A stretch of 63,292 bases of DNA, the filler included, from Sluysia triapertura (lineage: Eukaryota), in assembly GCA_046118255.1 (NCBI GenBank). It is 5 parts of 5 records of this genome, joined end to end, with 100 filler letters (N's around TTAATTAATTAA, not from the genome) between each part and the next. Parts side by side here need not be neighbours in the genome. Positions count along the whole stretch, not along the records: positions 1 to 16,260 come from JBJNIA010207701.1; 4 more parts are not named here. One strand, given 5' to 3'. Shown in pieces: positions 9,858 to 33,650 of the stretch. Position numbers and translations under genes: made by a program. The notes below the pieces were generated by a model. The model was not told the DNA's origin and ran no database searches. It saw only the letters and a list, made by a program, of their open reading frames with translations. Each line of letters opens with the position of its first letter. The first letter of the stretch is position 1.

Positions 9858-11085
9858 TTATATTATACATAAGTTTATTGAAATACTATACATTTTTGCA
9901 CATACTGGAGAGCAGACTTTGGAATAAATAATGTTAAAATCATGATTAACTAAAAAAGAAATTAGAATTAGAATTAAAAGATCGTACTTGGAATATAGAA
10001 TACGATGTTCTTCTATTTTTGAATTGAGACCATGATTTATAACATGTTGTGGCAAATGGTAGATTATAATATGACATATAGAAAATAAAGTGTCTTTTGT
10101 ATCGATTGTACCGTCTTGATGTCTACCATGTCCCGGATAGATATATCGATTGTATCATTAGTTTCATGACTTAATGACCATTCCTCTAATAATAGGTTGT
10201 AGTCTAGCGAATAGATCATCATTTGTGTCGATTGCAATGCCTTGATGTCTACATATTTCATTAATAAAAATCATAACCATAATCATAAAAATCATAATCG
10301 GATACAAATGTTGATTGTATCAATAGTTTCATGATTTGATGACCATTTCTCTAATAACAGTGCACATATATCTGGTCTTTCCACTAATTTAGCATCATTT
10401 CCAAAAGATCCTTCAAAATTATCTTCAAACAATAAAGCGGCACAGTCCCGATTTTTCATAATTTGTCCCGCGTCCCGCGACGTTTTTCAAAGTCCCGACT
10501 TGTAGAATTAAGTTAAATTTTATATTTATGAAAATCATTGTTTTGCGTTCTAAGAATCCTTCAATTTGTTTTGCGATTTTTCTACAGTAAATCAAATGTG
10601 GACATCAGAAAAATCAAAATTAAGTGTCGAACTTTGAAAGCCCTTTTATGTGTCAAATATAAATTGACAAATTCTTGTGATGATTTTTACAATATTTTAT
10701 TATATAATGACAACAATCTACTGAAACAAATTCACTCAAATAAAAAATATGTCAAGGAATAAAATATTATACAGTTATATTTATAAATTGTATTTATGTT
10801 AAAAATAAAAAAATATTACGATATTATTTTTATTCTGTATGAAAATTTTTGTTGATACTTCCCGCTTTGCCCATCTAAATATTTGGTCACCTTGAACAAT
10901 AATGAAAAATCTATTTCAGTAATAAATCGCTGAGGAAATGTAGTTGGTAAAATGCTTGAAATATTCATGTAATCATTGATTGTTTTCTTATTTAACTACA
11001 TATCATAAACATAGTCATTACTTTTAAAATTCAAAAGAAAACTTTTATCCTTGTGTTTAATTATGTAGAAAAACTGTGTTTTCAT
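9858..11085 (-). pseudogene. Decayed intronless ORF of unknown function with an internal repeat, split by a hAT insertion
   Basis: Begins MKTQFFYIIKHKDKSF. Removing the hAT and one TSD copy restores ...EIDFSLLFEDNFEG.... Repeated unit LLLE(K/E)WS..HET.DTI.I.IR and VDIK..QS.Q. Confidence 0.45.
10436..10894 (+). mobile_element. Internally deleted hAT (Blackjack-like) DNA transposon
   Basis: 8-bp TSD AACAATAA at 10428-10435 and 10895-10902. GTCCCG subterminal repeats, right end TTGGTCACCTTG, and a transposase C-terminal remnant TLKALLCVKYKLTNSCDDFY...LLKQIHSNKKY. Confidence 0.85.
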
Positions 11086-12317
11086 TTATTTGCTAACTAA
11101 TTAATCTTGTAACTTAAATAAAATTTTACTTGCCACTTAAAATTGTTCTCAACATTTGTGTAGTAACAAAATCCGAGTTGGCATGCAACGGTTATAAAAC
11201 AAATGGTGACCAGAATGTACTATTGACTGTACATATTTATTTTATCGGTTGAATCATCTTTTAAAATAATTAAAATTAAATAAAATTAATTAATTCTACA
11301 TTTCAAATTTATCGTACTCTTTCGCATTTTCTATATTGTCATGAATTACACTAATCAAATATATTCATTTTTGAGTCTTTATTATATTTATGCAATATTT
11401 GATCTACATCTGTTGTTTCAATTTGAGCATTGTCAAACGTATTAAAAGAAAAATTGTACCAGGTACTTGAGACATCAGTAAAAGTACTTCTTGTTTTTGG
11501 TAAAATATATTTATTTAGTGAGTCATCAAAATTACCGATAAACGTTAAACCAGTATCACTAGAATAATTGAGTTTTATTTTGTTTTTTTTTAAATAGAAT
11601 AGAATAGAGAATGATAATACAGTTAAAGATGATGATTTAAAGAAAAAAGAAAATGAAGCTGGAAACTATAATAATAATCTGAAGAAAATGATTACTGTGA
11701 AATACGAGAAATGATAAATAAAATTGAAAATGTAGTAAAACAAAAGAATAAAGGAAACAAGCTGTTAAATTCGAACCGATTAGGAAAATAGATAGATGAA
11801 ATAATAAAAGATTTAGTAGCACCTAATAAACAACAAATAAGTTTACCTCAAAAAATCTACTATTGTTGAAGAAGTTATAAGAAGAAATAAAGTAAAGTAT
11901 GACACTAACTCAAGGAGTCAGAAATATGAGAAACAATTAAAAGAAAAAGGATGGTTAAAACCTGAAGAAAAGGTAAATATGCTAAGTAAAATGAAGAGTA
12001 TAAACCCTTGAAAATATTATAAATTTAAGGTAAATCCAATGAAATAAAGATACAGCTAGCAGAACTAATTAAAGATAAGATGCCACAAATCAGATCGGGA
12101 TCCTTCAGAATTTTATATCACAATGCAGTATTAGAATATGAAGACGGAATGATAATTAAACGAACCATAGTGGATGGCCTTACAAGTAACAAAATAATAA
12201 ATATAATGACGCACTTGACTATACAAAGAAATGGATATCAAGAAAACGCTTGCAATGGATTACTAAAAAGGAGGATGGAAGGCTATAATAGAGGAAATAA
12301 GTCCACAACAAGTAGAA

Positions 12318-13129
12318 ATGAATCGAACAGCAATTACTCAAAACTTCCAAATATTGCTGATTATAATTTTAATTTTATGTGGAATCAAACCAACTGGCAC
12401 TATTACAGCAGTCATGGGAAATTGGAAATAGTTTCTCGTTCGTAGACAAAGAGAATTGCTCGTAGGCGACACCAACAAGGTTATTTAACCTATGGAACAA
12501 ATATTTCATGTATACCAAGAAAGTGTATTAATACGCACAGAGGTTAAGGAATGTGTAGTAAAGCGAGCTGTGAAGTTACAGTATTGCGGTCAACATGGAA
12601 CGGTTTATCCATTAAAAGATAGAACTCCTTTCATACCGTTAATAATGTCCACAGAGACTTGCCTAGAATAAAGATTAAAATAAAGATAAAGAATAAAGAT
12701 AAAAAGTGATTTAATAATTGGAATAAATAAGGGTGTTATAAAATATTGTCATTATTTTGCCGTAGGAAGTTATACAGAAAACAGATACGGATATTATACG
12801 GAGTATAATTTATAATTTAGATGGAGTAACCTATAAAAATGTGATCGCCACCGAATATTATATGATCGAAAACTTGGAGTGCGACTTTTGACTCAAGTAC
12901 TAATAATATGATACAAGTACCAAACTGTAAAATAACAGATATAATTTGTGACACCGGAGTGTCTATACTAATTTATAAAGTGAATAGATTTGAATGCCCA
13001 TTGACTCATTTAAAAGCAACATTGTTTAACCAAACTAAAGGGTTTACATATAGGAAATTAGACACAACACAAATTCTAAATGTTGAAAAAGTAATAGAAA
13101 TATACCTGATCAACAAATCCCAGAAATAG
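12318..13129 (+). pseudogene. Envelope glycoprotein remnant, chuvirus-like
   Basis: Across frames: signal-like LLIIILILCG, then FSFVDKENCS, VYQESVLIRTEVKECVVKRAVKLQYCGQH...MSTETCLE and NCKITDIICDTGVSILIY...ECPL. The cysteine pattern recalls chuviral-type glycoproteins; recognised by eye, no search run. Confidence 0.55.
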
Positions 13130-13226
13130 AAACGCCAACTATCATAATGTCTACGAATTCAACAGATGGTATGGTGTTCGTTCTGAAATCACAGTAGAAG
13201 ATACAGCAGCATTATAGGAATAAATA

Positions 13227-13520
13227 ATGATTTTGGATAAGAGAAACGATGAGGAGATAATGAATATTATTAATATAATGAAAAATACCTTTTTTAACTA
13301 TCATTTTCAGAATAATGTTTTAAAATATAAAATGGAAGACAAATTTTTTAATCGTAGTACCTCAGTCAAAAAAATAATATTAAGAAATTATCGCCATGGT
13401 CAATTGGGAGGTCACCTTTCCACGAAAAGAACCATTGAAAGGATAAAAAGAAAGTATTATTGGATCAATAGGGACTACGAGATCACAAACTGGTGTAAAA
13501 ATTGTAAAATGTGTAATTTT
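13227..13520 (+). pseudogene. Gypsy-type integrase zinc-binding (HHCC) domain remnant
   Basis: H.QLGGHLSTKRTIERIKRKYYW...NWCKNCKMC. Confidence 0.85.
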
Positions 13521-13620
13521 GGGAACAAAGTGGTAAAAGAACAAGCTAAACATGAAAGCATACAAGATAATCACGATAATGCTACTAAACAAAATTTTAT
13601 ATGGCAAGATATAGAGCCAC

Positions 13621-13900
13621 CTCCTTATAGATTGTATAATAATTAATGGAAAGATAATACAAGGATTGATAGATGCAGGTTCATATGTAAGTATTAGACG
13701 ATATGAAGACATGCCAGAGCCAAAAAGATAGAGTTGATAGAAGTACTTGAAAAATTCGACGGAGTTGACACATCAACTATGGTATTTAATCGACAGAGTA
13801 GAAACTAAAATTGAACAATATAACTTCCATAGAGAGATAGCGATAGTGTGCAACTATCCAGAAGAAGTAATAATTGGAATGGATATCTTATAAAAGTTTC
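13621..13900 (+). pseudogene. Retropepsin-like aspartic protease remnant
   Basis: IINGKIIQGLIDAGSYVSI (DAG at 13672-13680) and EEVIIGMDIL at 13861. Confidence 0.75.
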
Positions 13901-16900
13901 CAGAAATACTTATAAAAAAGGAATAGAATTTAAAAAATAGATTAAAGAAACCAAATATTATAGAAATTCTATCAAATAAAAATCAGCTTATTTTTCAAAA
14001 AGGAAGATATAAATATACGTTTAATGGAAGAGATCAATATATAGAATCGGAAGATTTATTACAGAGATTAGGAAAAGCTTGTAAAAACCCAAAAGATATG
14101 AATAAACTGGAAACTACGGTCAATACCTTGATGAATTCACGTAATTCTTTACAATTATATCCGGATCTGAAACATAGACTAAACATAATAATACAAAATC
14201 GGCCATTTCATCAGAAAAGGAAAATATACGAATTATTTAGTAACATGGAGAACTAATATGACAGTTCTAAAGAGAATAGATGAAACGCAACAAAAAATAG
14301 AGAAGGAATTTCGTATCGGGCTAACAGTATCATCTTTACTAGATTTCGTAAAAACGTACTTGAACACGACACAAAAAGTAAATATGTATTATAGAGAAAG
14401 AGTATTGGACCGAGATTATGGACCATACTTAATTGACGAGAAATTGTAATTACAATTGGTAATGATGAATATATCGATCCCAGATCATCTAACGAAACAT
14501 AAACACATTTAGAAACTGTAAATCAAAAATTCTATCGTGAGGTGTTTAGAGAGTTATCAATAAGAAATCAAGAAAGAGAAAGATTACTACCCAGGCGTTT
14601 ACAACCTACTCATTTATTAGAAGATGCATTAAATAACGAAGAAAGAATACTAATGTTCCACAAAATGGAAAAATATAGATATTATGAAGCGTACAATCTA
14701 CGCGAGAGATTAGTAGAAGCTCTAAAGCTCCGATAGACGTAAAAGAATTGGAAACAATTAATACCATCTTAAATTCCAATGAACCATTACATGAATAAAC
14801 ATCTCTAAAGGACCAATTACTCGATGTAACCCAATCATGGCAACCAAGTCGAAGGACAAAGATATACCAATTACTTCGAGAAATAGGACACAGGTAAAGA
14901 TCCGTCTACAAATACAAGCGAATTCGAATAAGAATGAACATAATAGAAAAAGGAATGATAAAAGATCAAGATTTCGATATCGGTATGGATATAAGTTTAT
15001 TAAAAAATATCGAAGTTAAAGCATACGTCCATACTAGTGTAAACATTTATATAAGTGAAGATATTTAAGATATTATTGATGATTAAAGTGTGTGTTGATT
15101 AGTAACGTTTTACAGAATTTGTATTGAAAGCCTAATTGTTTACATTTATTACAAGCATATATTAATATATTGATATAAGAAAGTATTCAGAATCGTTTGA
15201 AGAAGAAACATAAGTATTGAAAATATTGTTGAATATTATTAAGTTTAAGCTTGAATTTTTCATAAATTCAACATTATTATTATTATTGTTGTTATTATTA
15301 TTTTTTATGCTATATTGCAATTCACTAAGTTCTATAAAATTAGCGTCATTTTTAAACGAATGAATTTTTTACGTTTTGAATCTTCTTTTTGATTATCAAG
15401 TGTAGACTTGATGAGTGAATTCATGTTTAGACATTTTCAAAATTGGTCAAGTTTTTGAATTTTATTTTCGGGGTTGATGAAATAAATGAGATTATTATTT
15501 CTTGTTAAAACTGACATCTTTGTTTCTTATCGAACTTCAAGCATGCTCAATAAATCTTCGATTTCACTCTAAGATACAATATTGATTCCGCAGTTTTTAT
15601 ATTTCAGGATAATTTTAGAGTTCATAACATAATATTTATGCCAGAAAAAGGAAATTACAAGTGTCAGTAAAATGTAGCGAAGAAAGAAAAGAAAAATGAA
15701 TAATAATCACAACGAGGTTGTATATTGTAAGTTGTAGTTTTGTTCATAAACTGATATGTAAATTTCATTATAAGTTCTTGGAGTGAAAAAAATCATACGA
15801 AAAAATTAAGGATATTAATTGTGAAGAAGTGGTCAAGTGTTTAAGAAATATGTGATTTATATTGAAGTAAATGTTTGTTATGGAATGATCTCTGAAATAA
15901 AATAGGTATAATTAGTTGAATCACACAGCAGATATAATTTAATTTTCGGAAAATTTTAAAATTAAAATTATGATTTGCTTGTATAAAGTTTATTTAAATT
16001 TTATTTATATTTTATTATTTATATTTTCTATTTTGTTTTGTGAAAAAAATTATAAATATTGTAAAAATTAAAAATATTAAAATTATAAAAATTATTATTC
16101 TTAAAAATTATAATTAAAATTGTGTTAAAAATTATAATTATAATTAAATTATTTTATAAAAGTGTTGGGATTGCCCAACTTTAGATTAGGAGACGAGTAA
16201 AAGACATATAGAATTATAAATAAAGGAAAAATTGATGAGAAGTAGCAGATGAAGTATTGTNNNNNNNNNNNNNNNNNNNNNNNNNNNNNNNNNNNNNNNN
16301 NNNNTTAATTAATTAANNNNNNNNNNNNNNNNNNNNNNNNNNNNNNNNNNNNNNNNNNNNTAATAATAATAATAATAATAATAATAATACATGGTGTTTG
16401 ATCGAAATCCAATTTAGCAAGAAAATAAGTGTTTCAAGATGAAACTTATCTCTAGAAAACGTTCATATTTATTTTCATCGTCTAGGACAAAGGTGCGCAA
16501 ACTAGGGCCGAGACCCGTGATGGGGACGCTAAAAATTTTAAAATTATTATATTTGTGCGAATTTTGGTTCGAAAAATAGAGTTTTAATCTACTTTATTTT
16601 ATATGTTTCTATTCGTGAATCCTCTGACACCGGGTTTACGCACTTAATGGCCGATGCATATATGTCAGCCTTTTTTAAAGAAAATGCAAGAAATGGAGTT
16701 ATCAGAGTGTGTAATCTTAAGTATATTTATGATAAATGCTAGTAAAGTTATTTTTTCGCTTATGATATGTTCTAATGAAAATTCCTTAAACCAAATTTAA
16801 ATTTATTGTGGTATAAACTAATTTAATATTTTTATGATTAATTCTAAAATACATGTATTAAAACAGACTATTTAATTCTAATACAATTCTTTTCTTTTAA

Positions 16901-23088: not shown

Positions 23089-23525
23089 ATAAACTAAATT
23101 CCTTGCTATAACAAATAACTAAAATTTTAATTTTGATTAATACTGGTTTATTTTTCTAGTATATTTAAAATATTAATATCAGAACAGTACAATTGTTTGA
23201 TTTTTATAGTTTTGCTTTTTAAATTTACTTTTTAATATTGCTAATTTGTTTTAATAATTTGTTATATTTGTACTCAAAATCATTGAAATAATTTAGTAAA
23301 ATATTTAAGCTGCTATTTATATCAAATAATTTGTATAATTTTTATTTTAATTGATTTTTGCCCTAATTTTACATTTTATTAGAAAAATTATTTTGTTTTG
23401 ATGGAAATTAATTACTGTTATGCGAATCAATAGTAATTTATGCCTAATAAAAATAATATTCGAAGGTCATAGTTAAAAAATAAAATATTTTTACAAAAGC
23501 TAAGAATTCGAAATTTCTTTATTTT

Positions 23526-23918
23526 ATGAGTTTATATTACGCAGTAGCTAAAGGTAAGAAACCCGGAATTTATTCTTTCTGGGAAGAATGTGAAGCAACA
23601 ATTGAAAGTTTTGATGGTGTTTATTTTCGAAAATTGCTTACGAAGCCCGATGCTATGTTATTTCTGATGGAAAACAATGTTGTATCATCAAAATTTTGTT
23701 ATGCAGTTGCAGCTGGCCATGTTACTGGAATTTATTTAAATAGGGATGATTGCAAGGAACAAATAAATCAATATTCTGGAGCAGTTTTTAAAAAGTTTAA
23801 GACAGTGGATGAAGCAAAACATTTTATTGATAATTACAAAAAGCAAGTTAATATTTTAAATACCCAAAATTCAAAACGAAAAAGAAAAAATGAAACGGAA
23901 CTAATAGTAGTCAGTTAA
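23526..23918 (+). CDS. Protein with two tandem RNase H1 N-terminal hybrid-binding (Cauli_VI-like) domains; no catalytic domain seen
   Basis: YYAVAKGKKPGIYSFWEEC...DAMLFL and YAVAAGHVTGIY...CKEQINQYSGAVFKKFKTVDEAKHFI, followed by basic KRKRK. Confidence 0.8.
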   Translation: MSLYYAVAKGKKPGIYSFWEECEATIESFDGVYFRKLLTKPDAMLFLMENNVVSSKFCYAVAAGHVTGIYLNRDDCKEQINQYSGAVFKKFKTVDEAKHFIDNYKKQVNILNTQNSKRKRKNETELIVVS

Positions 23919-29019: not shown

Positions 29020-29192
29020 TGTTGAGGTACAAGCCTAAAGTGCCGTGGAATAATGATAGTATAATTAACTATAATAAAACAAATTGTTGGGCAGGACTGA
29101 TAGTTCAGTGGTCAGTGCATCGAACTGAACAGCTGTGAACAAGAGGTGCCAGGTTCGATTCCTTGTCAGTCCATTTTATGAAGTCTATAACA
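29020..29192 (+). mobile_element. tRNA-containing LTR, same family as 663-1048
   Basis: TGTTGAGGTACAAGCCTAAAGTGCC...TAGTTCAGTGG...GGTTCGATTCC...CAGTCCATTTTATGAAGTCTATAACA. A possible start of a second LTR at about 29261 shares ATGCGTAAAGTG with the 911 copy. Confidence 0.75.
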
Positions 29193-33492: not shown

Positions 33493-33650
33493 TGTTGAGG
33501 TAAAAGGCCTAAAAGGTGCCATGAAGTATAATGGAATATAATAAAAATGAAATTGTTAGACGGGGCTGATAGCTCAGTGGTAGAGCATCGACTGTGCAGA
33601 CGATGGTCCCGGGTTCGATCCCCGGTCAGTCCCTTTTTTGAAGTCTAACA
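33493..33650 (+). mobile_element. tRNA-containing LTR, best-preserved copy
   Basis: TGTTGAGGTAAAAGGCCTAA...GAAGTCTAACA, collinear with 663-818 and followed by GA-TGG. Confidence 0.8.
33563..33639 (+). ncRNA. tRNA-like Pol III unit inside the LTR (Cys/Ala-like; not a canonical tRNA)
   Basis: Acceptor stem GGGCTGA/TCAGTCC, D arm GCTC-AGTGGTA-GAGC, T arm CCGGG-TTCGATC-CCCGG, irregular anticodon arm, then a T6 terminator. Confidence 0.6.

Follow-up and report, generated by a model that had tools for sequence, protein, structure and literature searches.

The stretch of DNA analysed here (the window; 63,292 nucleotides of Sluysia triapertura, filler included) very probably contains what is left of a Burro-like Ty3/Gypsy retrotransposon, a dead copy with internal deletions. 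Its relatives encode gag, env and pol in a single frame, and a planarian flatworm is its likely host. One strand carries, in the order known from the intact relatives, a Bcl-2-like domain, a predicted signal sequence, the N-terminal part of an envelope glycoprotein (env), an integrase zinc finger and a protease, and the copy bears stops, frameshifts and two large deletions (Table 1). It is a dead remnant of an already published kind: the original prediction had seen an undescribed Anakin-like capture, but the layout, with env placed between gag and pol behind Bcl-2, was published in 2019 and again in 2026, as far as the available descriptions go. The window itself is AT-rich eukaryotic DNA (GC 0.256) with (AAT)n runs and N gaps, and its 25.6% GC, these repeats and the likeness of env to Schmidtea elements together suggest the planarian host, in keeping with the earlier view that the host is probably not an arthropod.

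Table 1. Features of the decayed element copy, in positions of the window
Feature	Position	Strand	Basis or remark
Element copy, decayed	11420..15290	+	approximate, ~240-bp resolution; coding strand A-rich
Bcl-2-like domain remnant	12041..12281	+	immediately before env; interrupted by frame changes
Internal signal sequence of envelope (predicted)	12345..12410	+	alignment to relatives
Class III fusion glycoprotein, N-terminal part	12418..13194	+	tblastn, relatives' profile, hhalign
Integrase H2C2 zinc finger	13365..13517	+	PF17921, E 1.1e-11
Retropepsin-like protease remnant	13636..13896	+	PF00077, E 8.4e-05
Broken reading frames inside the repeat, no family match	13927..14736	+	high contig depth

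The glycoprotein had been proposed at 12318-13129 on the strength of Cys-rich segments, and these are indeed present, EVKECVV...YCGQH...STETC in the frame of 12318 and CKITDIICDTGVSILIY...ECP in the ORF at 12866-13129; the interval does hold a glycoprotein, but the homology continues to 13194. All 14 relatives queried by tblastn match the remnant (each piece 26-52% identical, lowest E 6e-12), in collinear pieces that fall in three frames (12418-12513, 12474-12728, 12869-13117 and 13060-13194). A profile built from the env segments of nine relatives scores 54.1 bits in the window, against a maximum of 7.2 over all 40 triplet shuffles, and of the 1266 six-frame pieces into which the window was divided, only those at 12418-13197 reach an iE below 0.5. 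Profile positions 33-290 of 625 are found, and hhalign scores the two main pieces at 98.0% and 97.9% against the relatives' profile, aligning six conserved cysteines. When stops are read as X, 12318-12830 has one Pfam match, Monjiviricetes_fusion (PF24664), which is weak (E 0.051). Thus 12318-13194 (+) is a broken class III fusion glycoprotein of the chuvirus-G/herpes-gB type. Roughly its N-terminal 40-45% survives, distributed over three frames and interrupted by five or more frame changes and four or more stops. More than half of the gene is missing, including the central helix, the C-terminal domains and the membrane anchor. A word-indexed protein search with the broken env piece returned none among 350 candidates; no match was found in a phage collection, nor among viral contigs by protein or by pattern.

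The identity of the glycoprotein can also be approached through the predicted fold of a relative, P0017. Its model is of middling quality overall (mean pLDDT 56.4, pTM 0.34), with pLDDT of about 85-90 across most of residues 211-400, the part retained in the window, and it shows a long central helix and a membrane anchor. Foldseek ranks herpesvirus gB best in the PDB (E 2.3e-10), and in the VIA comparison gB is reached with Z 9.1 (rmsd 10.5, 327 aligned), Z values of at least 8 being confined to two of 48,161 chains, both of them gB. Against BFVD the best match is the glycoprotein of Tacheng tick virus 4 (E 2e-33), followed by two more chu-like glycoproteins, and Atlas agrees with a chuvirus-like class III reading (score 0.96). 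Structural identity to viral glycoproteins is 14-19%. Judged from this model, the earlier designation as chuvirus-like is correct for a class III fusogen, and the comparison with viral fusion proteins, by PF24664 in the relatives and by fold, bears it out. Since glycoproteins of qin-, xinmo- and other negative-strand viruses (ranks 4, 8 and 9) score almost equally, however, the model singles out no chuvirus donor.

What kind of element this glycoprotein belonged to is learned from its relatives. An exhaustive phmmer search of 1.84 billion proteins gave five matches (E 2e-6 to 1e-4), all with PF24664 (E 1e-13 to 1e-90) and four of them polyproteins of 1,299-2,855 aa that also bear retropepsins; two further protein searches added eight relatives, all of them ENA records. 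Six loci came from a metagenome scan with a degenerate motif, two of them real, L002 and L004, in which single ORFs of 3,426 and 3,703 aa place env before protease, RT, RNase H and integrase. Three others (L001, L003, L006) are chance matches at loci with bacterial-type genes, and L005 is a chance match with no long ORF. Both real loci are partial, and the contigs that carry relatives reach 32 kb. The relatives' gag domains comprise Ty3_capsid, Retrotrans_gag and zf-CCHC. P0014, for example, carries Ty3_capsid, CCHC, Bcl-2 (E 0.0015), env, proteases and ankyrin, while P0011, a cluster member of 4,844 aa, carries env, seven protease stretches, ankyrin and RT-RH-IN, and P0009 has four retropepsin Pfam stretches in its polyprotein. 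In the intact arrangement env is in frame within one polyprotein, which can be as long as 4,844 aa and has the order Gag - Ubl - Bcl-2 - Env - proteases - RT - RH - IN, and the window aligns with L002 in four collinear pieces that correspond to Bcl-2, env, env again and the zinc finger. Homologues of the glycoprotein are thus linked to pol, env preceding RT-RH-IN in one ORF.

The pol of this lineage is of Ty3/Gypsy type, as had been predicted: RT-RH-IN of a relative finds Ty3-G Gag-Pol as its best PDB match (E 1.9e-122). BEL-type elements are marked by the Pfam families Peptidase_A17 and DUF1759; no such family occurs among the relatives' matches, the comparison being one of Pfam families. A PDB sequence search with the relatives' alignment retrieved proteases only, and no Pfam match to MATH or BIR was seen in the relatives scanned, most of which are partial. 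Beyond the shared order, P0011, P0009 and P0006 have several retropepsin units, some of them behind the integrase, and in these three and L004 a predicted membrane-anchored domain ends the polyprotein after pol. A separate exonuclease ORF (RNase_T, PF00929) follows the polyprotein at L002:10617-12107 (E 1.4e-05) and L004:12085-13473 (E 0.0011); L004 has an additional ORF of 222 aa that falls in no known family.

Upstream of env, the original prediction had noted a signal-peptide-like start. An ATG is found at 12318 and a hydrophobic segment follows it, but the ATG lies in frame with open sequence upstream, and the segment aligns with the hydrophobic segment that in the relatives precedes the [AG][YF]DC start and that sits within the polyprotein in eight of nine of them (in P0017, about 160 residues precede it); it is therefore predicted to be an internal signal sequence and not the start of a gene. 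The sequence directly before it is the best match, among the 1266 pieces, of a Bcl-2 profile made from three sequences. The match is weak when taken alone (iE 0.002), and its 14.5 bits in the window stand against a shuffle maximum of 8.8. Within it, 12137-12217 shares 44% identity with L002 aa 345-371, which belong to the Bcl-2-folding part of that protein, and the W...GGW at 12256-12281 is what we take to be a BH2-like motif; a direct Pfam scan of the window's upstream frames returned no Bcl-2. The modelled N-terminus of L002 contains a SUMO/Ubl fold (Z 12.5) and a Bcl-2 fold (Z 14.4, rmsd 2.6, 132 aligned, 6wgz_B); a Z of the latter size can be reached by chance with helical bundles, but Bcl-2 proteins make up most of the top rows, and in P0014 Pfam gives the same answer. 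Farther upstream, at 11420-12040, neither Pfam nor tblastn of the relatives recognised any gag.

Downstream, the integrase and protease remnants that had been reported beside the glycoprotein are both present. A deletion near 13190 joins env to the integrase finger, with loss of the rest of env, the proteases, RT and RNase H, and over 46 aa the finger shares 54% identity with L002, L004 and P0024; the integrase core is absent from this copy. The protease that follows the finger has DAG in place of DTG and contains stops. Protease units lie behind the integrase in two of the six integrase-bearing relatives, by a motif count that also picks up ankyrin false positives, and in a motif comparison the window protease matched no single pre- or post-integrase paralogue. 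The broken frames beyond it have no Pfam match below E 0.05 and no tblastn match to the relatives, and 14192-14446 gave no usable Atlas match. Because gag, RT, integrase core and LTR are all missing from the window copy, its class rests on the relatives and on the 46-aa zinc finger. A Gypsy remnant elsewhere in the window, at 52793-54469 (-), was considered as the missing RT and rejected, as it is a different element, 25-45% identical to the relatives' pol.

That remnant is an unrelated decayed Gypsy element with remnants of RT, RNase H and integrase core, and lies within a T/G-skewed stretch extending to about 58000. Other features of the window include a weak RT-like remnant at 47145-47425 (-) (E 0.097 to P0024), an ORF at 23484-23918 (+) in which the RNase H1 N-terminal (Cauli_VI) domain occurs twice (E 9.4e-31), an intronless rhodopsin-family GPCR (7TM) of about 450 aa at 49043-50536 (+) (7tm_1, E 3.5e-17), and tRNA-like dispersed repeats at 682-1045, 29140-29187 and 33513-33647, one of which ARAGORN calls at 33562-33634.

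Among the runs listed, one sequencing run, possibly the source sample, contains the stretch, and no RNA run does. The limits of the copy are visible in the depth of that run's contigs, which is not a copy number: it is 1,131-37,200 in the 16 bins of 11420-15291, whereas the bins on either side have 42 and 22.5. Composition changes over the same interval (GC 0.29 and AT skew +0.22, compared with flanking values of about 0.25 and -0.01). The element family is thus highly repeated, in terms of contig depth and not of copy number. Other repeats of very high depth (40,000-186,000) flank it at 10452-10935 and 16018-16250. An LTR element had been predicted, but no LTR is recognisable in the window copy: neither an LTR pair nor a target duplication was found there, the copy being truncated and a sequence gap following at 16261, and no repeat is shared by the two ends of 11420-15290.

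High depth in all retained parts would fit the view that the 3.9-kb deleted form has been amplified as a non-autonomous element in its own right, with intact helpers supplying mobility in trans. We consider this improbable, since depth drops to 34-71 at the env-integrase junction (13193-13300) and contigs diverge from the window sequence at 13188 (two contigs), 13525 and 13566; the deletions therefore look private to this copy or to a few copies, and no termini of such a form were found. The low-depth junction can also be read in another way, as the seam between a free endogenous chuvirus glycoprotein and unrelated Gypsy debris brought together by template switching or chance. Such insertions are common in arthropods, insect examples with adjoining gypsy fragments have been described (PMC10084718), and the nearest viral folds are indeed chu-like glycoproteins. 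The nearest sequences, however, are all retroelement polyproteins or their fragments, at 26-52% identity per piece as opposed to the far lower structural identity of viral glycoproteins, and the intact elements matched by env are also matched, collinearly, by the Bcl-2-like piece and the zinc finger, so that this explanation is already largely refuted and is the least probable of those weighed here. A deleted Burro-like copy remains the preferred reading. With the central helix, the anchor, RT and the integrase core missing, this copy is dead: it can neither produce a fusogen nor transpose on its own.

Two published systems come close to it. Burro (GYPSM1), as described by Arkhipova and Yushenova (2019; PMC6431247), comprises giant Gypsy-like LTR retrotransposons of Dugesiidae, longer than 30 kb and with long LTRs, that encode one polyprotein of about 4,900 aa in the layout Gag-Ubi-BCL2-Env-PR-dUTPase-RT. 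Ubi2/SUMO-like, ankyrin, dUTPase-like, MATH (possibly in a separate ORF) and BIR domains are listed, and the env matches mononegavirus fusion glycoproteins; the authors call Burro the first case of an in-frame env between gag and pol, propose that such elements are proviruses, and report decaying fragments with stops and frameshifts in Dugesia japonica. Our element resembles Burro in the BCL2-like domain directly before an in-frame env, seen as a remnant in the window, as a fold in L002 and by Pfam in P0014. Ubl and ankyrin are present in the relatives' polyproteins; the window copy recognisably retains neither. It differs in its length of about 3.9 kb, in having no LTR, gag or RT, and in that MATH and BIR were not seen in the relatives found, most of them partial. 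Set against the published description, it likely belongs to Burro proper.

Membership in the second group is well supported. Chary and Hayashi (2026; PMC13524379) describe Ty3/gypsy elements of GAG-ENV-POL order and gB type from Nematoda, Bryozoa and Platyhelminthes, with nine flatworm entries, six of them from Schmidtea (Smed_errantivirus_1-6); these are intact, about 14.5-18 kb long and present in multiple copies. Our copy shares with them a class III gB-type env before Ty3/gypsy pol, the pol being seen in our relatives while the window copy keeps the finger and no RT, and has env upstream of the integrase finger and protease on the same strand. The pattern YQES...EC...CG...C and C...C.TG...C of the Schmidtea elements can be recognised by eye, and the ORF at 12866-13129 has 22 of 59 ungapped identities, again by eye, with Smed_errantivirus_3, similar to its identity with the protein relatives. 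Unlike these elements, the window copy is dead. The word "Bcl" does not occur in the main text of that paper.

The original prediction favoured a recent and independent capture of a chuvirus glycoprotein by a new Gypsy lineage, as in Anakin, a BEL/Pao element of mosquitoes with a chuvirus glycoprotein (Dezordi et al., 2020; PMC7642597). The two cases are alike as LTR elements with a captured glycoprotein of the same broad type, but our lineage has Ty3/Gypsy and not BEL/Pao pol, and its env lies inside the polyprotein behind Bcl-2. A glycoprotein of the same Pfam family and a Gypsy-type pol are what a recent capture would produce; the layout and a related env are, however, already in print for flatworm elements, negative-strand viruses other than chuviruses offer nearly equal matches, and Chary and Hayashi, who note the Chuviridae envelope likeness, argue for an ancient, Pre-Cambrian env-pol association. 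A recent capture is thus highly improbable, and the match in layout to both sets of published elements (PMC6431247; PMC13524379) favours an ancient association. Troyka (PMC12440569) was also considered and rejected, as no env is described for it.

The anatomy of the relatives, together with general knowledge of viral polyproteins, suggests how an intact member of the Burro-like lineage might work. One polyprotein would be made, of which the Gag, Ubl and Bcl-2 parts would remain cytosolic, while env would enter the ER by way of the internal signal sequence, which signal peptidase would cut, and its anchor would bring the chain back into the cytosol. The element's own retropepsins would then free RT, RNase H and integrase. 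Env would serve as a putative fusogen on particles that spread from cell to cell or from soma to stem cells, and Bcl-2 would protect the host cell from death. The window copy itself was inserted by retrotransposition and has since decayed. That this genome harbours an enveloped, once or still infectious, high-copy flatworm family, with a polyprotein cut by a chain of retropepsins, one of them behind the integrase, is doubtful at present; a multi-retropepsin scheme is not described in the available text of PMC6431247 or PMC13524379.

Taken together, the dead fragment is one more instance of a published class, and for the question of fusogenic particles the intact Schmidtea elements in print serve at least as well as the window copy. 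Of the candidates for an infectious retrovirus-like agent in flatworms, the class itself, with a class III fusogen in frame between gag and pol and beside Bcl-2, is the best.
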